Assembly: GCA_965612795.1 (NCBI GenBank)
Contig: CBFDTI010000001.1
Span: 37,895 to 101,894 of the forward strand
Origin: an uncultured bacterium
Lineage (GTDB): Bacteria > Hydrothermota > UBA3073 > NMUJ01
Length of the DNA stretch: 64,000 nt
Reading direction: 5' to 3'
Below, piece by piece: positions 1 through 4,592 of the stretch. Numbering within the stretch: position 1 is the stretch's first letter; each line of letters opens with the position of its first letter. A model generated the notes under the pieces. The model was not told where the DNA came from and searched no databases. It saw nothing but the letters and a program-made list of their open reading frames with translations. The translations under genes and the position numbers were made by a program.

Positions 1-683
1 TACGCATTCACAAGTTGCGAACTTCCCCTTACATACATCACTATCCCAGAGTCTGTACCCACCCATAAAGTGTCATTACACCACTCCAATGCCGTAATCC
101 TAGCTTCCCTAACTTCAACCGGTAGATCCGTCTTTGGTATCACATGCCAGCCGTTACCTTCAACATCCGTTACACCGATACCGTCTTCTGTACAGAACCA
201 CAACGAATCGTTATGATAATAAACACGCAATACTTTATTATCCAACGGTACAGGTAGGTTCCAATAGCTTATTCTCTCAATATCGGATAAGTTAGCAGCA
301 AGTTCCAATACCGTGACAGGTGCATCATCCTCAGTAGCTATCCATACTCTTCTACCTGCTACTGCCATTGAAGAGAACCTGTCACTTTGTGGTAACCCCT
401 GTGCGTTCGTGTAACTGTACGATATACCATGCGTGAAGATTACCAACCCCTTACTACGTGTAAGACACCACACCCCAGACGAGTCTACAAATATATCCTG
501 TACGTTATTTTCGGTAAGCCCATCCACATTTGTTAAATGTTGTAACTCATCCGTATCAGGGTTATAAATTACCACACCACCCTCGGTTGCTGCATAAATA
601 CAAGTTTCGTAATGAAAAATATCATTCACTTTATAAGTAGAGAGAAAGCTCTCCCATACGATCCCCAATACAAACAATATCAT
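1..683 (-). CDS. PorZ-like / two-component-regulator-propeller beta-propeller protein (3' end runs off the window)
   Basis: Not in the ORF track. Manual translation from ATG at 683 (ATGA overlap with the upstream gene's stop) gives MILFVLGIVWESFLSTYKVNDIFHYETCIYAATEGGVVIYNPDTDELQHLTNVDGLTENNVQDIFVDSSGVW..., typical Reg_prop blade repeats as in the PorZ N-terminus. Confidence 0.7.
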   Translation of the reverse strand, partial: MILFVLGIVWESFLSTYKVNDIFHYETCIYAATEGGVVIYNPDTDELQHLTNVDGLTENNVQDIFVDSSGVWCLTRSKGLVIFTHGISYSYTNAQGLPQSDRFSSMAVAGRRVWIATEDDAPVTVLELAANLSDIERISYWNLPVPLDNKVLRVYYHNDSLWFCTEDGIGVTDVEGNGWHVIPKTDLPVEVREARITALEWCNDTLWVGTDSGIVMYVRGSSQLVNA

Positions 684-1072
684 TTACCCAGCTTATTACG
701 TATGAATTCTATCACCTGCTCTTTGTTGCCCCTAAACCTCACGTACATACCACGAAAGTTTTCCAACCTGTTGGGTTTATCAAACGGGCTAAGCAATACA
801 CCATATTTATCGACATAGTAGCTTTTGATCGACTCCCAGCGCCTGAATTGTGTCACAAAGAACCCCTTTTTATAGACACCCCTGTCGTTCATTACATAGG
901 TGGTTGGCAAAAAATACGACAATATATTTACAACAAGCAAAAACGTACCAAATAATGTCCACCACACTCCCCACGTATAGTAAAGACCAATCGCCAAAAA
1001 CACAATAAAAGCTATCAAATACGCTGTTTTACGTGGCTCCTCTTTAGCGGGTAACGACCGCCATTCTATCAT
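680..1072 (-). CDS. small membrane protein (two TM helices plus YcxB/PH-like C-terminal domain)
   Basis: 130 aa ORF with two hydrophobic helices; 4-nt overlaps with both neighbours. Confidence 0.65.
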   Translation of the reverse strand: MIEWRSLPAKEEPRKTAYLIAFIVFLAIGLYYTWGVWWTLFGTFLLVVNILSYFLPTTYVMNDRGVYKKGFFVTQFRRWESIKSYYVDKYGVLLSPFDKPNRLENFRGMYVRFRGNKEQVIEFIRNKLGK

Positions 1073-2175
1073 AACTTAAGTTTATCAAACTCAGGTTTCA
1101 ACATCTCATAGATTTTATCGAGTGCTGCTGATATCACCTTTGTATCACCAATTACTGGCATAAAGTTGGTATCCCCCAACCACCTTGGTACAATATGTAC
1201 ATGTATATGGTCGACCACACCCGCACCCGCCACTTTACCCACATTTATACCGATGTTGAACCCATGGGGATGCATCACCTTACGCAATATCTCCACAGAG
1301 GCTTGTACTAAACGCCCAACCTCCACAAGCTCTTCCGGAGTCAACTCTGTCAGTTCACCAGTGTGACGTGTGGGTGCTACCATCAAATGTCCGTTATTAT
1401 AAGGGAAGATATTCATGACAACAAAAGCCCGTTCACTACGATACAATACATAGCTCTTGGCCATATTTTTGAGCGCATCACAAAATATGCATCCCCCCTT
1501 GCGTGGCCCCGTTATGTACTCTATACGCCAAGGTGCCCACAACCTATGCGGTACTGTTGTCAACAGCTTTTCAGTTGTCTTAAAATGTAACTTCGCAACC
1601 TTACCTAATGCGTGTTCACCTTTTGTTAAGACAAATTCCTTACCTATCAGCTCCACTTCTGTAGACGCGCCCTTGGGTAACACCATACCTTCGCTCTCCG
1701 ATAATTTATTTAATTGCTCCAAAAATGTAGCACGTGCCAAAAGTGACGCCAGCATCACCGCAAGATCCTCCTCCCCATGTGGATGTATCACCAACGGTAC
1801 TCCTTTCGGGAAATACGATTTTATAAAATCCGGATCCGCAAACTGATCTATCACTATACGGTCGCAACTACCCACACTGTTAAGTAGCTTCATCACAACC
1901 CTACTATGTAGCCATGCCAAGATATGGTTGAGGTTAGGTGTCCTACTATAGAGCTTATTGTATTCTGTAGGCGCCAGATAGCATATCTCATGTACACACA
2001 ATTTTTTAATTTCCTGGCTCAGATATATAGCTTGTGCATCGGTTACCTTTTTGCTCTCCCTTATTGGTAGTTTCTTCAGTTCTGGTAGCTTCTCGTCATC
2101 CAAAAATACTGCCGCAACTGCCAATCCACCAAAATAATCCCCCTTACCAGCTTCGTCACTACCTATCCATCTCAT
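1069..2175 (-). CDS. rnhC: ribonuclease HIII catalytic domain fused to a C-terminal HIT-family nucleotide hydrolase
   Basis: N-terminal GSDEAGKGDYFG, IDQF and KLHF (RNase HIII motifs); C-terminal LWAPWR..CIFC..PYNNGHLMV..GFNIG.N.G..AG...HIHVHIVPRW.GDTNFM (HIT, Ap4A phosphorylase/FHIT-like). Confidence 0.85.
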   Translation of the reverse strand: MRWIGSDEAGKGDYFGGLAVAAVFLDDEKLPELKKLPIRESKKVTDAQAIYLSQEIKKLCVHEICYLAPTEYNKLYSRTPNLNHILAWLHSRVVMKLLNSVGSCDRIVIDQFADPDFIKSYFPKGVPLVIHPHGEEDLAVMLASLLARATFLEQLNKLSESEGMVLPKGASTEVELIGKEFVLTKGEHALGKVAKLHFKTTEKLLTTVPHRLWAPWRIEYITGPRKGGCIFCDALKNMAKSYVLYRSERAFVVMNIFPYNNGHLMVAPTRHTGELTELTPEELVEVGRLVQASVEILRKVMHPHGFNIGINVGKVAGAGVVDHIHVHIVPRWLGDTNFMPVIGDTKVISAALDKIYEMLKPEFDKLKL

Positions 2176-4592
2176 TTTGTAACTATATTGATGAGCTTTT
2201 TAGGTACCACGATGATACGTTTCACCTGCTTACCCATAATATGTTGCCGTATTTTGGGATGTTCCAGTGCCATCTTACGTATATCGTCTTCTGTCACATC
2301 AAACGGTACCTGCAGACGTACCCTAAGCTTACCATCAACCTGCACCGGTATCTCAATCTCCGGTAGGTATACTTTCCCTGGATCATACTGAGGCCAACTT
2401 GCGTGGAAAATAGATCCCTCACCTCCGATCCTATGCCATAATTCTTCCGCTAGATATGGTGCAAATGGTGCAATCAGCTTCACTAACGTATAAAGCCCAT
2501 AACCGAGCGTCTCGTCCTTTCCAGACTTGTAGAATTCATTGACAAGCTCCATCAACGCCGCTATCGCAGTATTATAGTGGAAATCTTCAATATCCTCCGT
2601 AACCTTCTTGATCGTGTAGTTAATCCTACGCAATAATATACTGTCATTAGCCGGTACATTCTCCGTGATTATATCGGTGTTCTCCGTCACAATCCTATAG
2701 ACTCGATCAAGGAACCGCCGTGCACCTTCAACTACACGTTCGCTCCATATACCTTCTTTTTCCGGTGGCCCCAGAAACAGCACCCCCACACGTGCAACGT
2801 CTGCACCTACCCGCTGCACGAGAGGTCTCACCGGTACAGCTGTACCCCTTGAAGATGACATCACCTTTCCGTCTTCGTTCAATATCATACCCTGTGTGAA
2901 CAACCGTAATGCCGGTTCATTCACCGGCGATATACCTGCATCGTATAACACTTTCGTGATAAATCTGAAGTATATCAGGTGACCGGTTGCATGCTCGATA
3001 CCACCAATATATTGATCGATAGGCATCCATCTCTTCGCTATCTTAGGGTCAAATATTTCGTTATCGTTATGTGGGTCGGTGTATCGCAGTTGATACCAAG
3101 ATGAATCCACGAACGTATCCATAGTATCAGGGTCACGCTTTGCATCCCCTCCACACCGTGGACACTTTGTATTTATAAATTCAGGTACCGACTCAAGTGG
3201 CGATTTACCTTTAGGAGCGTAATCCACCACTTCAGGTAATTTCACCGGTAACTCTTCTTCCGGCACAGGTACCACACCACAACGTGGACAATGTATCATA
3301 GGGATTGGTGCACCCCAATAACGTTGCCGTGATACAAGCCAATCCCTAAGATGGAATTGCACCTCTCTACCACCCAATCCCATGGCCTTGAGCTCATCCG
3401 CCACTGCTGAAATCCCCTCTTCAGAGGTAAGTCCCGTAAATTTACCAGATTCTATCATCACCCCGTACTCTTCATAAGCTTTATCGAGCGGTTCGCTTAA
3501 TTCACTATCCACGGGTTTAATTACTACCTTTATCGGTAAGCCATACTTTTTAGCAAACTCAAAATCACGCTGATCGTGTGCAGGTACACCCATTACGATA
3601 CCTGTCCCATATGTAGCAAGTACATAATCACACACATAGATCGGAATACGTTCACCCGTAAAGGGATGCACCGCATATAGGCCTGTGAATACCCCAGTCT
3701 TTTCGCGTTCACGTGATGTACGCTCTATCTCCGAAATCCTAAGCGACCTCTCGATATATTGGTGAACCTCCTCACTTAAGGGTAAGCCTTCCAATATCTC
3801 ATGTTCTGGTGCTATCGCAATAAATGTCACCCCAAATACAGTATCAGCACGTGTTGTAAACACTGGTAACTGCTTATCGAACTCTGGTAGCTTAAACACG
3901 ATACGTACACCCTCGCTCTTGCCGATCCAATTTCGTTGCAGGTTTATCACCTCATCAGGCCATTTACCTTCGAGATATTTCAGATCATCCAGTAACCTCT
4001 CCGCATATGCAGTAATTTTGAAGAACCATTGGGTTAACTTACGTTTAATTACAAGGCTGCTACAACGCCAACATTTGCCATCACTCACTTGTTCGTTAGC
4101 TAACACTGTCTGACAGTTTGGGCACCAGTTCACATATGCAGGTTTACGGTAGGCCAGCCCTCTCTTGTAAAGTAGAAGGAATATCCATTGCGTCCATTTG
4201 TAGTACTCCGGTTCGCACGTCAGTATCTCACGTGTCCAATCATAACTTATACCCATGAGTCGGTAGCTTTCACGTGATATCTCGATATTCTTCATTGTCC
4301 AATCTCTTGGGTGTATACCATGCCGTATTGCTGCATTCTCTGCGGGTAGGCCAAACGCATCCCAGCCCACCGGATGCAACACCTGATACCCCTGCATCAT
4401 TTTGTACCGGGTTAATACATCACCCAACACATAGTTACGTAGATGCCCTATGTGTAAGTCACCTGATGGATACGCGAACATCTCCAGTACGTAGAATTTT
4501 CTGGCCGGATCCGGTCTATCCGTAGTTCTATAAATACCCTGGGTCTCCCACCACTTACGCCATCTATCCTCTATTTCATGAATCGGGTACAT
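2172..4592 (-). CDS. leuS: leucine--tRNA ligase (divergent KMSKS motif)
   Basis: YPSGDLHIGH, GWDAFGLPAENAA, CP1 editing motif GTG.VMGVPAHDQRD, SRQRYWGAPIP, DTMDTFVDSSWY and C-terminal VQVDGKLR. Confidence 0.97.
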   Translation of the reverse strand: MYPIHEIEDRWRKWWETQGIYRTTDRPDPARKFYVLEMFAYPSGDLHIGHLRNYVLGDVLTRYKMMQGYQVLHPVGWDAFGLPAENAAIRHGIHPRDWTMKNIEISRESYRLMGISYDWTREILTCEPEYYKWTQWIFLLLYKRGLAYRKPAYVNWCPNCQTVLANEQVSDGKCWRCSSLVIKRKLTQWFFKITAYAERLLDDLKYLEGKWPDEVINLQRNWIGKSEGVRIVFKLPEFDKQLPVFTTRADTVFGVTFIAIAPEHEILEGLPLSEEVHQYIERSLRISEIERTSREREKTGVFTGLYAVHPFTGERIPIYVCDYVLATYGTGIVMGVPAHDQRDFEFAKKYGLPIKVVIKPVDSELSEPLDKAYEEYGVMIESGKFTGLTSEEGISAVADELKAMGLGGREVQFHLRDWLVSRQRYWGAPIPMIHCPRCGVVPVPEEELPVKLPEVVDYAPKGKSPLESVPEFINTKCPRCGGDAKRDPDTMDTFVDSSWYQLRYTDPHNDNEIFDPKIAKRWMPIDQYIGGIEHATGHLIYFRFITKVLYDAGISPVNEPALRLFTQGMILNEDGKVMSSSRGTAVPVRPLVQRVGADVARVGVLFLGPPEKEGIWSERVVEGARRFLDRVYRIVTENTDIITENVPANDSILLRRINYTIKKVTEDIEDFHYNTAIAALMELVNEFYKSGKDETLGYGLYTLVKLIAPFAPYLAEELWHRIGGEGSIFHASWPQYDPGKVYLPEIEIPVQVDGKLRVRLQVPFDVTEDDIRKMALEHPKIRQHIMGKQVKRIIVVPKKLINIVTK

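Follow-up and report, generated by a model that had tools for sequence, protein, structure and literature searches.

Enzymes of the histidine triad (HIT) superfamily have the chemistry of nucleotidyl-phosphate transfer in common with aprataxin, the eukaryotic HIT-zinc-finger 5'-deadenylase. HIT proteins are obligate dimers, Rv2613c is a tetramer, and the solved relatives of the HIT domain described below are oligomers. A HIT protein can also be joined to an unrelated enzyme, as worms and flies show with NitFhit, the Nit-Fhit 'Rosetta stone' fusion, the two parts of which are encoded by separate genes in other lineages.

Among the RNases H, H2-type enzymes initiate single-ribonucleotide repair (PMC4132731, in excerpt), and a TBP-like N-domain of roughly 70–90 aa is a described feature of RNase HIII (excerpts of PMC9719913 and PMC4132731), where it boosts substrate binding and matters in vivo (excerpt of PMC4132731). 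In RNase H3 of T. ammonificans, the acidic residue Glu84 binds 2'-OH groups, and Tyr147 and His263 form a phosphate pocket (same excerpt of PMC4132731). With Mn2+, the RNases HIII of several bacteria make cuts at single ribonucleotides, and RNases HIII are important in Okazaki maturation (PMC9719913, in excerpt). A literature search, with subscription journals outside its coverage, returned nothing that links RNase HIII to a HIT domain or a histidine triad. Here, we describe a gene of an uncultured bacterium that encodes both in one polypeptide.

Results

Architecture and integrity of the fused gene

The preliminary description of the window (the whole stretch of 64,000 nucleotides analysed here) reported a single uninterrupted ORF of 368 aa in which an RNase HIII core continues in frame into a HIT domain. 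We confirmed this arrangement; specifically, RNase_HII (PF01351; residues 4–201, E 9.4e-30) and HIT (PF01230; residues 239–331, E 2.6e-17) lie in one frame, and the motifs DEAGKGDYFG, IDQF, KLHF, LWAPWR, CIFC, and HIHVH are all found in the ORF (Table 1). Because the stop-to-stop frame comprises 376 codons, of which only 8 lie upstream of the ATG, there is no room upstream for a hidden N-terminal domain. In an alignment of 21 fused proteins, the linker varies from ~4 to ~90 residues, and the junction is almost linkerless in the genus to which the window belongs. In an AF2 monomer model of the fusion (pTM 0.58), pLDDT drops under 50 from residue 209 on, and the low-confidence segments of the HIT half are residues 209–239 and 336–349. 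A prediction, with alignments, of a complex between the RNase HIII domain and two copies of the HIT domain scored 0.03 against a mark of 0.32, which speaks neither for nor against contact between the halves.

Table 1 Features of the fused gene, its neighbours, and contigs that span the junction (positions in the window)
Feature	Position	Strand	Details
LeuRS gene	2172..4592	minus	806 aa; upstream; TGA overlaps fusion ATG (ATGA)
Fused ORF (P0001)	1069..2175	minus	368 aa; ATG start, TGA stop; both Pfam domains in a single frame
RNase HIII catalytic core	1561..2175	minus	Residues 1–205; without TBP-like N-domain; TIGR00716 match
Catalytic Asp7-Glu8	2152..2157	minus	DEDE set with Asp110 and Glu135; read from sequence
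Junction	1549..1560	minus	Residues 206–209 (TTVP); shortest linker of the fused family; alignment of 21 fused proteins
HIT domain	1072..1548	minus	Residues 210–368; Rv2613c/Ap4A-phosphorylase-like; includes N-terminal LWAPWR segment and CIFC; PF01230
Histidine triad	1195..1209	minus	H323-I-H325-V-H327; read from sequence
orf130	680..1072	minus	130-aa membrane protein; downstream; ATG overlaps fusion TGA (ATGA)
Contig X3	1029-1965		937 nt; junction-spanning
Contig X4	920-2399		1576 nt; junction-spanning
Contig X18	900-2399		2761 nt; junction-spanning

The contiguity of the junction (~1540–1570) was checked against independent contigs from other runs, which are ~9% diverged and cross it without a single gap or indel. 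One of them, X18, stems from an RNA-labelled library and spans LeuRS, the fusion, and orf130; such a contig is no proof of transcription.

Distribution and history of the fusion

The fusion is not a peculiarity of one assembly but is carried by other homologue clusters, by other genomes of the class, and by the independent contigs. PF01351 and PF01230 occur together in 20 of the 120 homologue clusters listed, a listing that covered proteins of up to 644 aa; these 20 clusters have 45–93% identity and come from JGI, ENA, NCBI, and Logan. Among the 22 genomes of the window's class, 11 encode the intact fusion (three of the same genus and eight further), and these represent five families, across which the RNase halves are 41–47% identical. 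The preliminary description had counted separate genes in relatives against its own reading, and this applies in part, since rnhC and the HIT gene are separate and unlinked in eight of the 22 class genomes.

Using tblastn with the RNase half, we found no RNase HIII within 4 kb of the same HIT gene at any of 80 loci from other lineages. At two of these loci, in a member of the Peptococcaceae (L009) and a member of the Cloacimonadota (L061), HIT matches apparently extended into the RNase part; because the tblastn search was empty at all 80 loci, these are not fusions. Three candidates for a fusion in reverse order (P0124, P0173, and P0233) are actually tandem HIT-HIT proteins. Among uncultured marine bacteria, conservation of the fusion is confined to a narrow group; it is both lineage-restricted and dispensable.

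In a tree of RNase HIII domains, 33 of the 77 inner branches are left open, with the window's own genus and family f4 placed on long branches. Because the backbone of the tree is unresolved, the order of fusion and fission cannot be derived from it. An AU test did not reject a single clade of all fused proteins (p-AU 0.552), which does not amount to a demonstration of a single origin.

The N-terminal half is an RNase HIII core that lacks the N-domain

The N-terminal half scored 175.6 bits with TIGR00716 (rnhC; cut-off 161.2), which makes it a member of this equivalog, and at most 49 bits with RNase HII models. Because the match is limited to positions 84–284 of the 284 positions of the profile, the TBP-like N-domain is absent; in line with this and with what the preliminary description had noted, homology to 2d0a begins at residue 94 of that protein. 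The core aligns end to end with known RNases HIII (2D0A/3ASM; Thermovibrio ammonificans 4PY5; Aquifex aeolicus 3VN5; E 1e-26 to 1e-21), covering residues 94–303 of the G. stearothermophilus enzyme (2d0a/3asm) and residues 76–266 of 4py5. D7, E8, D110, and E135, which we take to be the catalytic D-E-D-E tetrad of type 2 RNases H, align to D97, E98, D202, and the E of 'PKAE' in 2d0a and are invariant in 21/21 fused proteins, in 116/116 proteins from outside the class, and in the 8/8 unfused RNases HIII of the class. By hand count on the alignment, and taking chain index as residue number + 1, the equivalents of Glu84, Tyr147, and His263 of T. ammonificans RNase H3 are D13, Y76, and H197; the H3-type substrate-recognition residues are kept, with D13 for Glu84 as a conservative change.

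The fusion thus has in common with known RNases HIII the DEDE residues, the H3-type substrate residues, and a genome pattern of HII and HIII without HI. Unlike them, it has no TBP-like N-domain, and it goes on beyond the KLHF helix, where they end, into a HIT enzyme. Specifically, the genome of the window (99.5% complete) encodes rnhB (G000:C6) as well as the fusion, and neither rnhA nor PF00075 was found in it, a combination that fits the H2+H3 rule (excerpt of PMC4132731). Across the phylum, RNase HI is present in none of the 22 class genomes versus 16 of 19 genomes of the other classes, while strong RNase HIII matches are present in 21 of 22 versus 0 of 19. Judged by this distribution, the whole class has apparently exchanged RNase HI for an RNase HIII core without the N-domain. 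Such a core stands alone in eight class genomes, and of 134 RNase HIII-like proteins retrieved in non-fused form, 79 are no longer than 260 aa.

The C-terminal half is an intact Rv2613c-type HIT domain

The preliminary description had regarded the HIT domain as intact and as closer to the Ap4A phosphorylase/FHIT-like branch than to aprataxin. Its best matches in the PDB are indeed Ap4A phosphorylases; it matched the HIT protein 6af2 (residues 210–365, E 1.8e-35) and 3ano, 'AP-4-A phosphorylase' (residues 211–362, E 1.1e-32). The similarity to Rv2613c (3ANO/3WO5) and 6AF2 is full-length (residues 210–365, E 1e-32 to 2e-35) and includes HxHxHxx, the N-terminal (L/R)W(A/T)P(W/Y)R, and the PYNxGH and PRWxGDxNF blocks. 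The HxHxHxx triad is present as H323-I-H-V-H-I-V and is invariant in 21/21 fused proteins; among 105 standalone relatives, its conservation is 98% or higher. In contrast to Rv2613c, the fusion has CIFC, and AGAG precedes its triad instead of AGGS; the small residues A318 and G319 align with the G-S of Rv2613c, to which Mori et al. 2011 reportedly give a meaning for phosphorolysis. The fusion also differs from the Rv2613c type in the nuclease joined at its N-terminus, and its activity on Ap4A would be a prediction: because it scored 142.2 bits with NF052622 ('ATP adenylyltransferase'; cut-off 290), a model named for actinobacteria, Ap4A is a putative substrate. The window's own genome contains a single Nudix, and no match to ApaH or YqeK was found in it.

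Where this HIT subfamily is fused to something else, the partner is mostly an enzyme of nucleotide polyphosphates: of the 120 clusters listed, 10 carry CYTH, and of 25 scanned proteins, three carry NUDIX and a further three are tandem HIT proteins. One relative is fused to RNase YbeY (P0090) and another to a LigA N-terminal fragment (P0184), and these two cases hint that nucleic-acid settings are within the subfamily's range. NitFhit (1EMS), which is among the PDB matches, resembles the fusion in combining a HIT protein of the Fhit-like branch with an unrelated enzyme; its partner is, however, a nitrilase-fold enzyme rather than a nuclease, and domain order and taxa differ.

Gene neighbourhood and conservation of the two halves

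The ATGA overlap between LeuRS and the fusion is real. However, LeuRS adjacency is limited to the window's own genus (L081–L083) and is absent at the nine other loci compared, which weakens the proposal that the HIT domain removes Ap4A produced by LeuRS. By contrast, orf130 adjoins the HIT gene, or lies within ~1.3 kb downstream of it, in most class genomes, fused and unfused, as against 3 of the 80 outside loci. No Pfam match was found for orf130; its nearest Atlas cluster is a 'putative PH domain-containing protein' of WOR-3, which we regard as a lead only. Unfused rnhC has another location, flanked by a peptidase C26 gene and nrdD, and no repair genes were found within ~10 kb of the fusion.

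Among the fused proteins, 50 columns of the RNase half are at least 95% conserved, of which 45 are matched by the identical residue in 80% or more of 116 outside proteins; in the HIT half, the corresponding number is 39 of 54, compared with 105 standalone HIT proteins. Neither domain contains conserved residues specific to the fusion, and sharing below 30% occurred at terminal positions only.

Discussion

From the preliminary description, the real and conserved fusion and the identities of its two domains stand, while the proposal that it nicks and deadenylates found no support, and the proposals that the HIT domain replaces the missing N-domain and that it serves LeuRS are weakened. The explanation that we consider probable is that the protein is a bifunctional polypeptide of two ordinary enzymes, tethered yet catalytically independent, in which a substitute for RNase HI is joined to an Np4N-clearing HIT enzyme and which formed through rnhC upstream of HIT-orf130. 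The RNase HIII core would be this lineage's stand-in for RNase HI, and the complete Rv2613c-type HIT half would most likely degrade dinucleoside polyphosphates (Ap4A/Np4N), probably by phosphorolysis of Np4N to NDP and NTP. Because HIT-orf130 synteny is common to fused and unfused genomes while unfused rnhC lies elsewhere, we suggest that, in one class of a WOR-3-like phylum, rnhC was placed immediately upstream of the HIT-orf130 pair and that loss of the intervening stop then produced the in-frame fusion.

Both active sites are conserved in the fusion; that it has two activities, and that its halves act independently, we infer from sequence comparison. For independence, we rely on absent signals: the linker is variable, pTM is 0.58, the genes are unlinked in relatives, none of the 80 outside loci joins them, and fusion-specific residues are lacking. 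The gain from the fusion is likely co-expression, and because the solved HIT relatives are oligomeric, the fusion may also provide a multivalent nuclease. We note that its retention across family-level divergence with intact active sites suggests some selective benefit, of which co-expression is a weak account.

We also considered that the HIT half is mainly a module for oligomerisation or substrate avidity that offsets the missing hybrid-binding N-domain of RNase HIII, which we regard as unlikely. The N-domain's enhancement of binding to the substrate and its importance in vivo (PMC4132731, in excerpt), together with its absence here, would give such a module a role. The obligate dimers of HIT proteins and the tetramer of Rv2613c would supply the means, and the low-confidence segments 209–239 and 336–349 of the monomer model would fit parts that may become ordered only in an oligomer. 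However, N-domain-less RNase HIII manages alone in the eight sister genomes and in the 79 short non-fused proteins, which weakens the idea that HIT replaces the N-domain, and invariant active-site and nucleotide-binding residues are unexpected for a purely structural module.

Somewhat less probable still is that the fusion, though built from different parts, does in bacteria the work of aprataxin or of an enzyme that decaps 5' ends. On this account, the RNase half would bind an RNA/DNA hybrid (Okazaki primer or R-loop) and cleave the RNA in it, nicking RNA-DNA, and the tethered HIT half would then process that same nucleic acid at its 5' end by removing the 5'-AMP left at the junction by abortive LigA ligation, or an Np4N cap. 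A single polypeptide contains the two strictly conserved active sites, with an almost linkerless junction in the window's own genus, HIT chemistry is that of aprataxin, and there is a conceptual tie to RNase H-generated RNA-DNA junctions. Because RNases HIII can cut single-ribonucleotide sites with Mn2+ (excerpt of PMC9719913), the RNase half could make such nicks, and Np4N caps are known on bacterial RNA (PMC7705103, in excerpt). Nevertheless, the fusion has no detectable specific similarity to aprataxin: of 41 PDB sequences matched at E ≤0.001, none is an aprataxin and the best are Ap4A phosphorylases. It ends ~40 residues past the triad, where aprataxin has a DNA-binding C2HE/C2H2 zinc finger; no zinc finger (E ≤0.1) or other nucleic-acid-binding module was detected, the C-terminal half matching HIT-type Pfam models only, and an FHA domain is absent as well. 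The nuclease is H1-like RNase HIII rather than the junction-specific RNase H2 relevant to aprataxin, canonical rnhB is encoded separately, the two genes are unlinked in 8/22 class genomes and never adjacent at the 80 outside loci, and neither fusion-specific residues nor repair genes within ~10 kb were found. We therefore see no positive evidence for the proposed nick-and-deadenylate coupling.

A regulatory coupling, in which binding or turnover of Ap4A/Np4N alarmones at the HIT half would modulate RNase HIII, or the reverse, and tie hybrid removal to stress, is in our view very unlikely. A second-messenger role of Ap4A in stress is under discussion (excerpt of PMC7705103), and the fusion persists in five families, but a linker of up to ~90 aa and the pTM of 0.58 speak against a defined allosteric interface, as do the lack of fusion-specific residues and the unfused forms in sister families against the coupling itself. 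Finally, that two adjacent genes were merged by an error of sequencing, assembly, or gene calling is hardly conceivable, since, although the halves are in different frames in one relative (G006) and the first ~39 residues are missing in another (G018), the open frame is common to three genomes of the genus, eight more intact class genomes, and 20 metagenomic clusters, and contigs of three other runs traverse the junction with 0 gaps.

We conclude that the fusion is real and old, and that the comparative results guard against annotating it as a repair enzyme. Because outside-clade synteny, fusion-specific residues, linker constancy, and repair-gene context are all neutral or negative, the 'Rosetta stone' inference, by which gene fusion implies cooperation, does not hold up for this protein; our analysis gave no sign that the two halves cooperate, and aprataxin-like coupling is unsupported and in our view unlikely. 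If that coupling were true, the Ap4A-phosphorylase-like HIT family would be one of nucleic-acid-end processing enzymes, and the fusion is a natural construct for asking whether HIT enzymes of this type act on nucleic-acid 5' ends. As for RNase HIII itself, cores that lack the N-domain are frequent among uncultured bacteria, and a class-wide replacement of RNase HI by such a core appears to have taken place; neither is mentioned in the reviews cited here, as far as their excerpts extend.

The RNase HIII-HIT fusion is real and conserved across part of a single class

Pfam places RNase_HII (PF01351) at residues 4-201 (E 9.4e-30) and HIT (PF01230) at residues 239-331 (E 2.6e-17) of the fused protein P0001, and all motifs quoted in the preliminary description were found in its translation. 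The ORF had been described as uninterrupted, and contigs of three other sequencing runs (X3, X4 and X18), ~9% diverged, bear this out by crossing the junction without gaps, with no indels reported. Proteins with both Pfam domains also occur beyond this assembly, in 20 of the best 120 homologue clusters (45-93% identity), and these fused clusters come from four independent sources. Across the fused proteins aligned with the query (A1, an alignment of 21), D7, E8, D110 and E135 of the nuclease half and H323, H325 and H327 of the HIT half are invariant, and the linker varies in length from ~4 residues in P0001 to ~90. The RNase HIII-HIT fusion is real. In a representative library at 50% identity, P0003 was the only fused representative among the best 150; the nearest relatives and the Atlas clusters carry labels that indicate candidate division WOR-3/Stahlbacteria.

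Coordinates of the fused gene, its neighbours, junction-spanning contigs and atypical loci
Feature	Position	Strand	Size	Description
Fused ORF (P0001)	1069..2175	-	368 aa	single ORF, ATG start
LeuRS gene	2172..4592			upstream; ATGA overlap with fusion
orf130	680..1072	-	130 aa	predicted two-TM membrane protein; start shares ATGA with fusion stop
X3	covers 1029-1965		937 nt	spans junction
X4	covers 920-2399		1576 nt	spans junction
X18	covers 900-2399		2761 nt	RNA-labelled library; spans junction
G006 locus	L104 1968-3134			RNase HIII frame stops; HIT resumes in other frame
G018 locus	L088 1350-1520			AT-rich, stop-rich sequence
M54-GNAT ORF	L116 2667-3602 (G000:C1:30561-31496)	-	311 aa	Peptidase_M54 (archaemetzincin-like), residues 15-164; GNAT acetyltransferase, 181-286

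We searched 41 genomes of the phylum for the fusion and examined further the loci of the window's class (22 genomes, G000-G021). The intact fused ORF is present in 11 genomes from families f1, f3, f5, f6 and f7 (G000-2, G004, G008, G010, G012, G014, G016, G020, G021), both genes are present but unlinked in eight (4.3 kb apart in G003; on different contigs with different neighbours in seven f4 genomes), and G013 (90% complete) has HIT only. In G018 the fused frame has lost its first ~39 residues, D7/E8 included, to stop-rich sequence, and in G006 the halves are adjacent but out of frame with each other, with another frameshift close to the C-terminal end of HIT; each of these two loci is either an assembly error or a copy in decay. 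We also compared 80 loci from many phyla outside the class that have a standalone HIT of the same subfamily, and none had RNase HIII within 4 kb. The fusion is conserved across part of this class. In an RNase-domain tree with an unresolved backbone, an AU test did not reject a single clade uniting all fused sequences (p-AU 0.552). The window's own genus has a very long branch in this tree (0.97 changes per column) and a genome of just 1.42 Mb, suggesting a reduced genome that has evolved at an accelerated rate.

The nuclease half as a probable substitute for RNase HI

The RNase half aligns over its full length with RNase HIII catalytic domains of known structure (2d0a/3asm residues 94-303, 4py5 residues 76-266, and 3vn5) and matches rnhC/RNase HIII TIGR00716 (NCBIfam) with 175.6 bits against a cut-off of 161.2. 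The TBP-like N-domain, which reviews present as an RNase HIII feature, had been described as absent; indeed, the match is confined to profile positions 84-284 and, because the frame comprises only 376 codons from stop to stop, this ~80-aa domain cannot fit. Figiel and Nowotny (PMC4132731) showed that Glu84, Tyr147 and His263 of T. ammonificans RNase H3 recognise the hybrid; counted on the alignment, their equivalents are D13, Y76 and H197. In A1, Y76 and H197 do not vary. Position 13 is always Asp in fused and outside proteins but Ser in seven of the eight unfused class copies.

The window's own genome carries a canonical rnhB (trmD-rplS-rnhB-yraN) and no RNase HI was found in it. RNase HI was found in none of the 22 class genomes versus 16 of 19 genomes of the phylum's other classes, and strong RNase HIII matches, in the class all beginning near profile position 80, in 21 of 22 versus none of 19. 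This pattern is clean across the phylum, so RNase HI was replaced by N-domain-less RNase HIII in this class, which agrees with the H2+H3 rule as cited in PMC4132731. In this organism, the RNase HI-substitute role falls to the fused gene alone. Because N-domain-less RNase HIII also stands alone, both in class genomes with unlinked genes and among 134 fetched non-fused RNase HIII-like proteins (79 of ≤260 aa), the missing N-domain is not a consequence of fusion.

Standalone RNase HIII-like proteins of ~205-250 aa, with no space for the N-domain, are numerous (among P0025-P0121; P0129, P0148, P0158, P0205 and others), several of them labelled Nitrospirota. Six RNase HIII proteins of 390-670 aa (P0134, P0136, P0161, P0190, P0230, P0263) have long N-terminal extensions with weak or sub-threshold matches to RnlA-toxin N-terminal/DBD domains, or with DUF3378 matches, and these extensions may represent hybrid-binding modules that are multiplied or exotic.

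The HIT half resembles Ap4A phosphorylases

Over residues 210-365, the N-terminal LWAPWR segment included, the HIT half shows full-length similarity to Ap4A phosphorylases of known structure (6af2, E 1.8e-35; Rv2613c, 3ano, E 1.1e-32). A review (PMC7705103) classes the M. tuberculosis enzyme as an Ap4A phosphorylase and notes its proper HIT motif. In NCBIfam, this half matches 'ATP adenylyltransferase' NF052622 with 142 bits, below the model cut-off of 290 bits. Because ApaH and YqeK have no match in the genome and it carries a single Nudix, the HIT domain is plausible as the predicted main Np4N-clearing activity.

Elsewhere this HIT subfamily is mainly fused to enzymes of nucleotide polyphosphates. 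CYTH is the partner in 10 of the 120 clusters listed (P0029 and nine more) and, among 25 proteins scanned, NUDIX in three and a second HIT in three (P0150, P0211, P0231, P0124, P0173, P0233). Exceptions are RNase YbeY (P0090, a 26-member cluster) and an N-terminal fragment of the NAD-dependent DNA ligase LigA (P0184); the latter and a CorA-fragment fusion (P0048) may be gene-call artefacts.

rnhC looks like an arrival upstream of a HIT-orf130 pair

The ATGA overlap described between the fusion and the LeuRS gene is real; as for translational coupling to LeuRS, adjacency holds in the window's own genus and in no other locus compared. In most class genomes, whether fused or unfused, orf130 adjoins the HIT gene or lies downstream of it by at most ~1.3 kb, and it follows HIT in 3 of 80 loci outside the class (HIT-orf130 loci: L084-L092, L099, L103-L108, L001, L005, L062). 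It has no Pfam match, and the Atlas cluster nearest to it bears the name 'putative PH domain-containing protein' (WOR-3). The conserved unit is the HIT-orf130 pair, not RNase HIII-HIT. In f4 the order is GcvP2-small ORF-HIT-orf130-DegT, with rnhC elsewhere, flanked by a peptidase C26 gene and nrdD. Based on this synteny, the fusion looks like the arrival of rnhC upstream of HIT.

Within ~10 kb either side of the fusion lie genes for a beta-propeller protein, a glycosyltransferase, PheRS alpha and beta, FMN reductase, PanC, HPPK, TPR, SSF, EF-P and similar proteins, and no repair genes; DnaB is ~12.8 kb away. The M54-GNAT ORF, ~7 kb away, is another unusual fusion.

Probably two ordinary enzymes in one chain

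The preliminary description proposed an aprataxin-like enzyme coupling nicking with deadenylation. RNases HIII can cut single-rNMP sites with Mn2+ and have a role in Okazaki maturation (PMC9719913), and the fusion is retained with both active sites intact; nevertheless, linker, residue, synteny and gene-context comparisons gave this proposal no positive support, and we consider it very unlikely. None of the 41 PDB matches of the HIT half is an aprataxin, in line with the caveat already attached to the proposal, and Pfam detected no zinc finger in P0001. The fusion is dispensable, given the unlinked genes in eight class genomes. No fusion-specific conserved residues were found on comparing 29 fused sequences with 105 standalone HITs and 116 outside RNase proteins. 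The fused set has 54 HIT columns with ≥95% conservation, and 39 of them have the same residue in ≥80% of standalone HITs, as do 45 of 50 conserved RNase columns in the outside proteins; only one terminal position per half falls below 30%. In the AF2 model, pLDDT is mostly >90 for the RNase half and 70-94 for the HIT core, with pTM only 0.58 and low confidence in segments 209-239 and 336-349.

No paper describing an RNase HIII-HIT architecture was found in the open-access literature; the architecture is new as a variant, each part being known. We favor the reading that the protein probably joins two ordinary enzymes, namely a nuclease substituting for RNase HI and a phosphorylase or hydrolase of Np4N, and the comparisons made gave no sign that they cooperate. 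The gain from fusion would then be co-expression, and perhaps also oligomer-based avidity.
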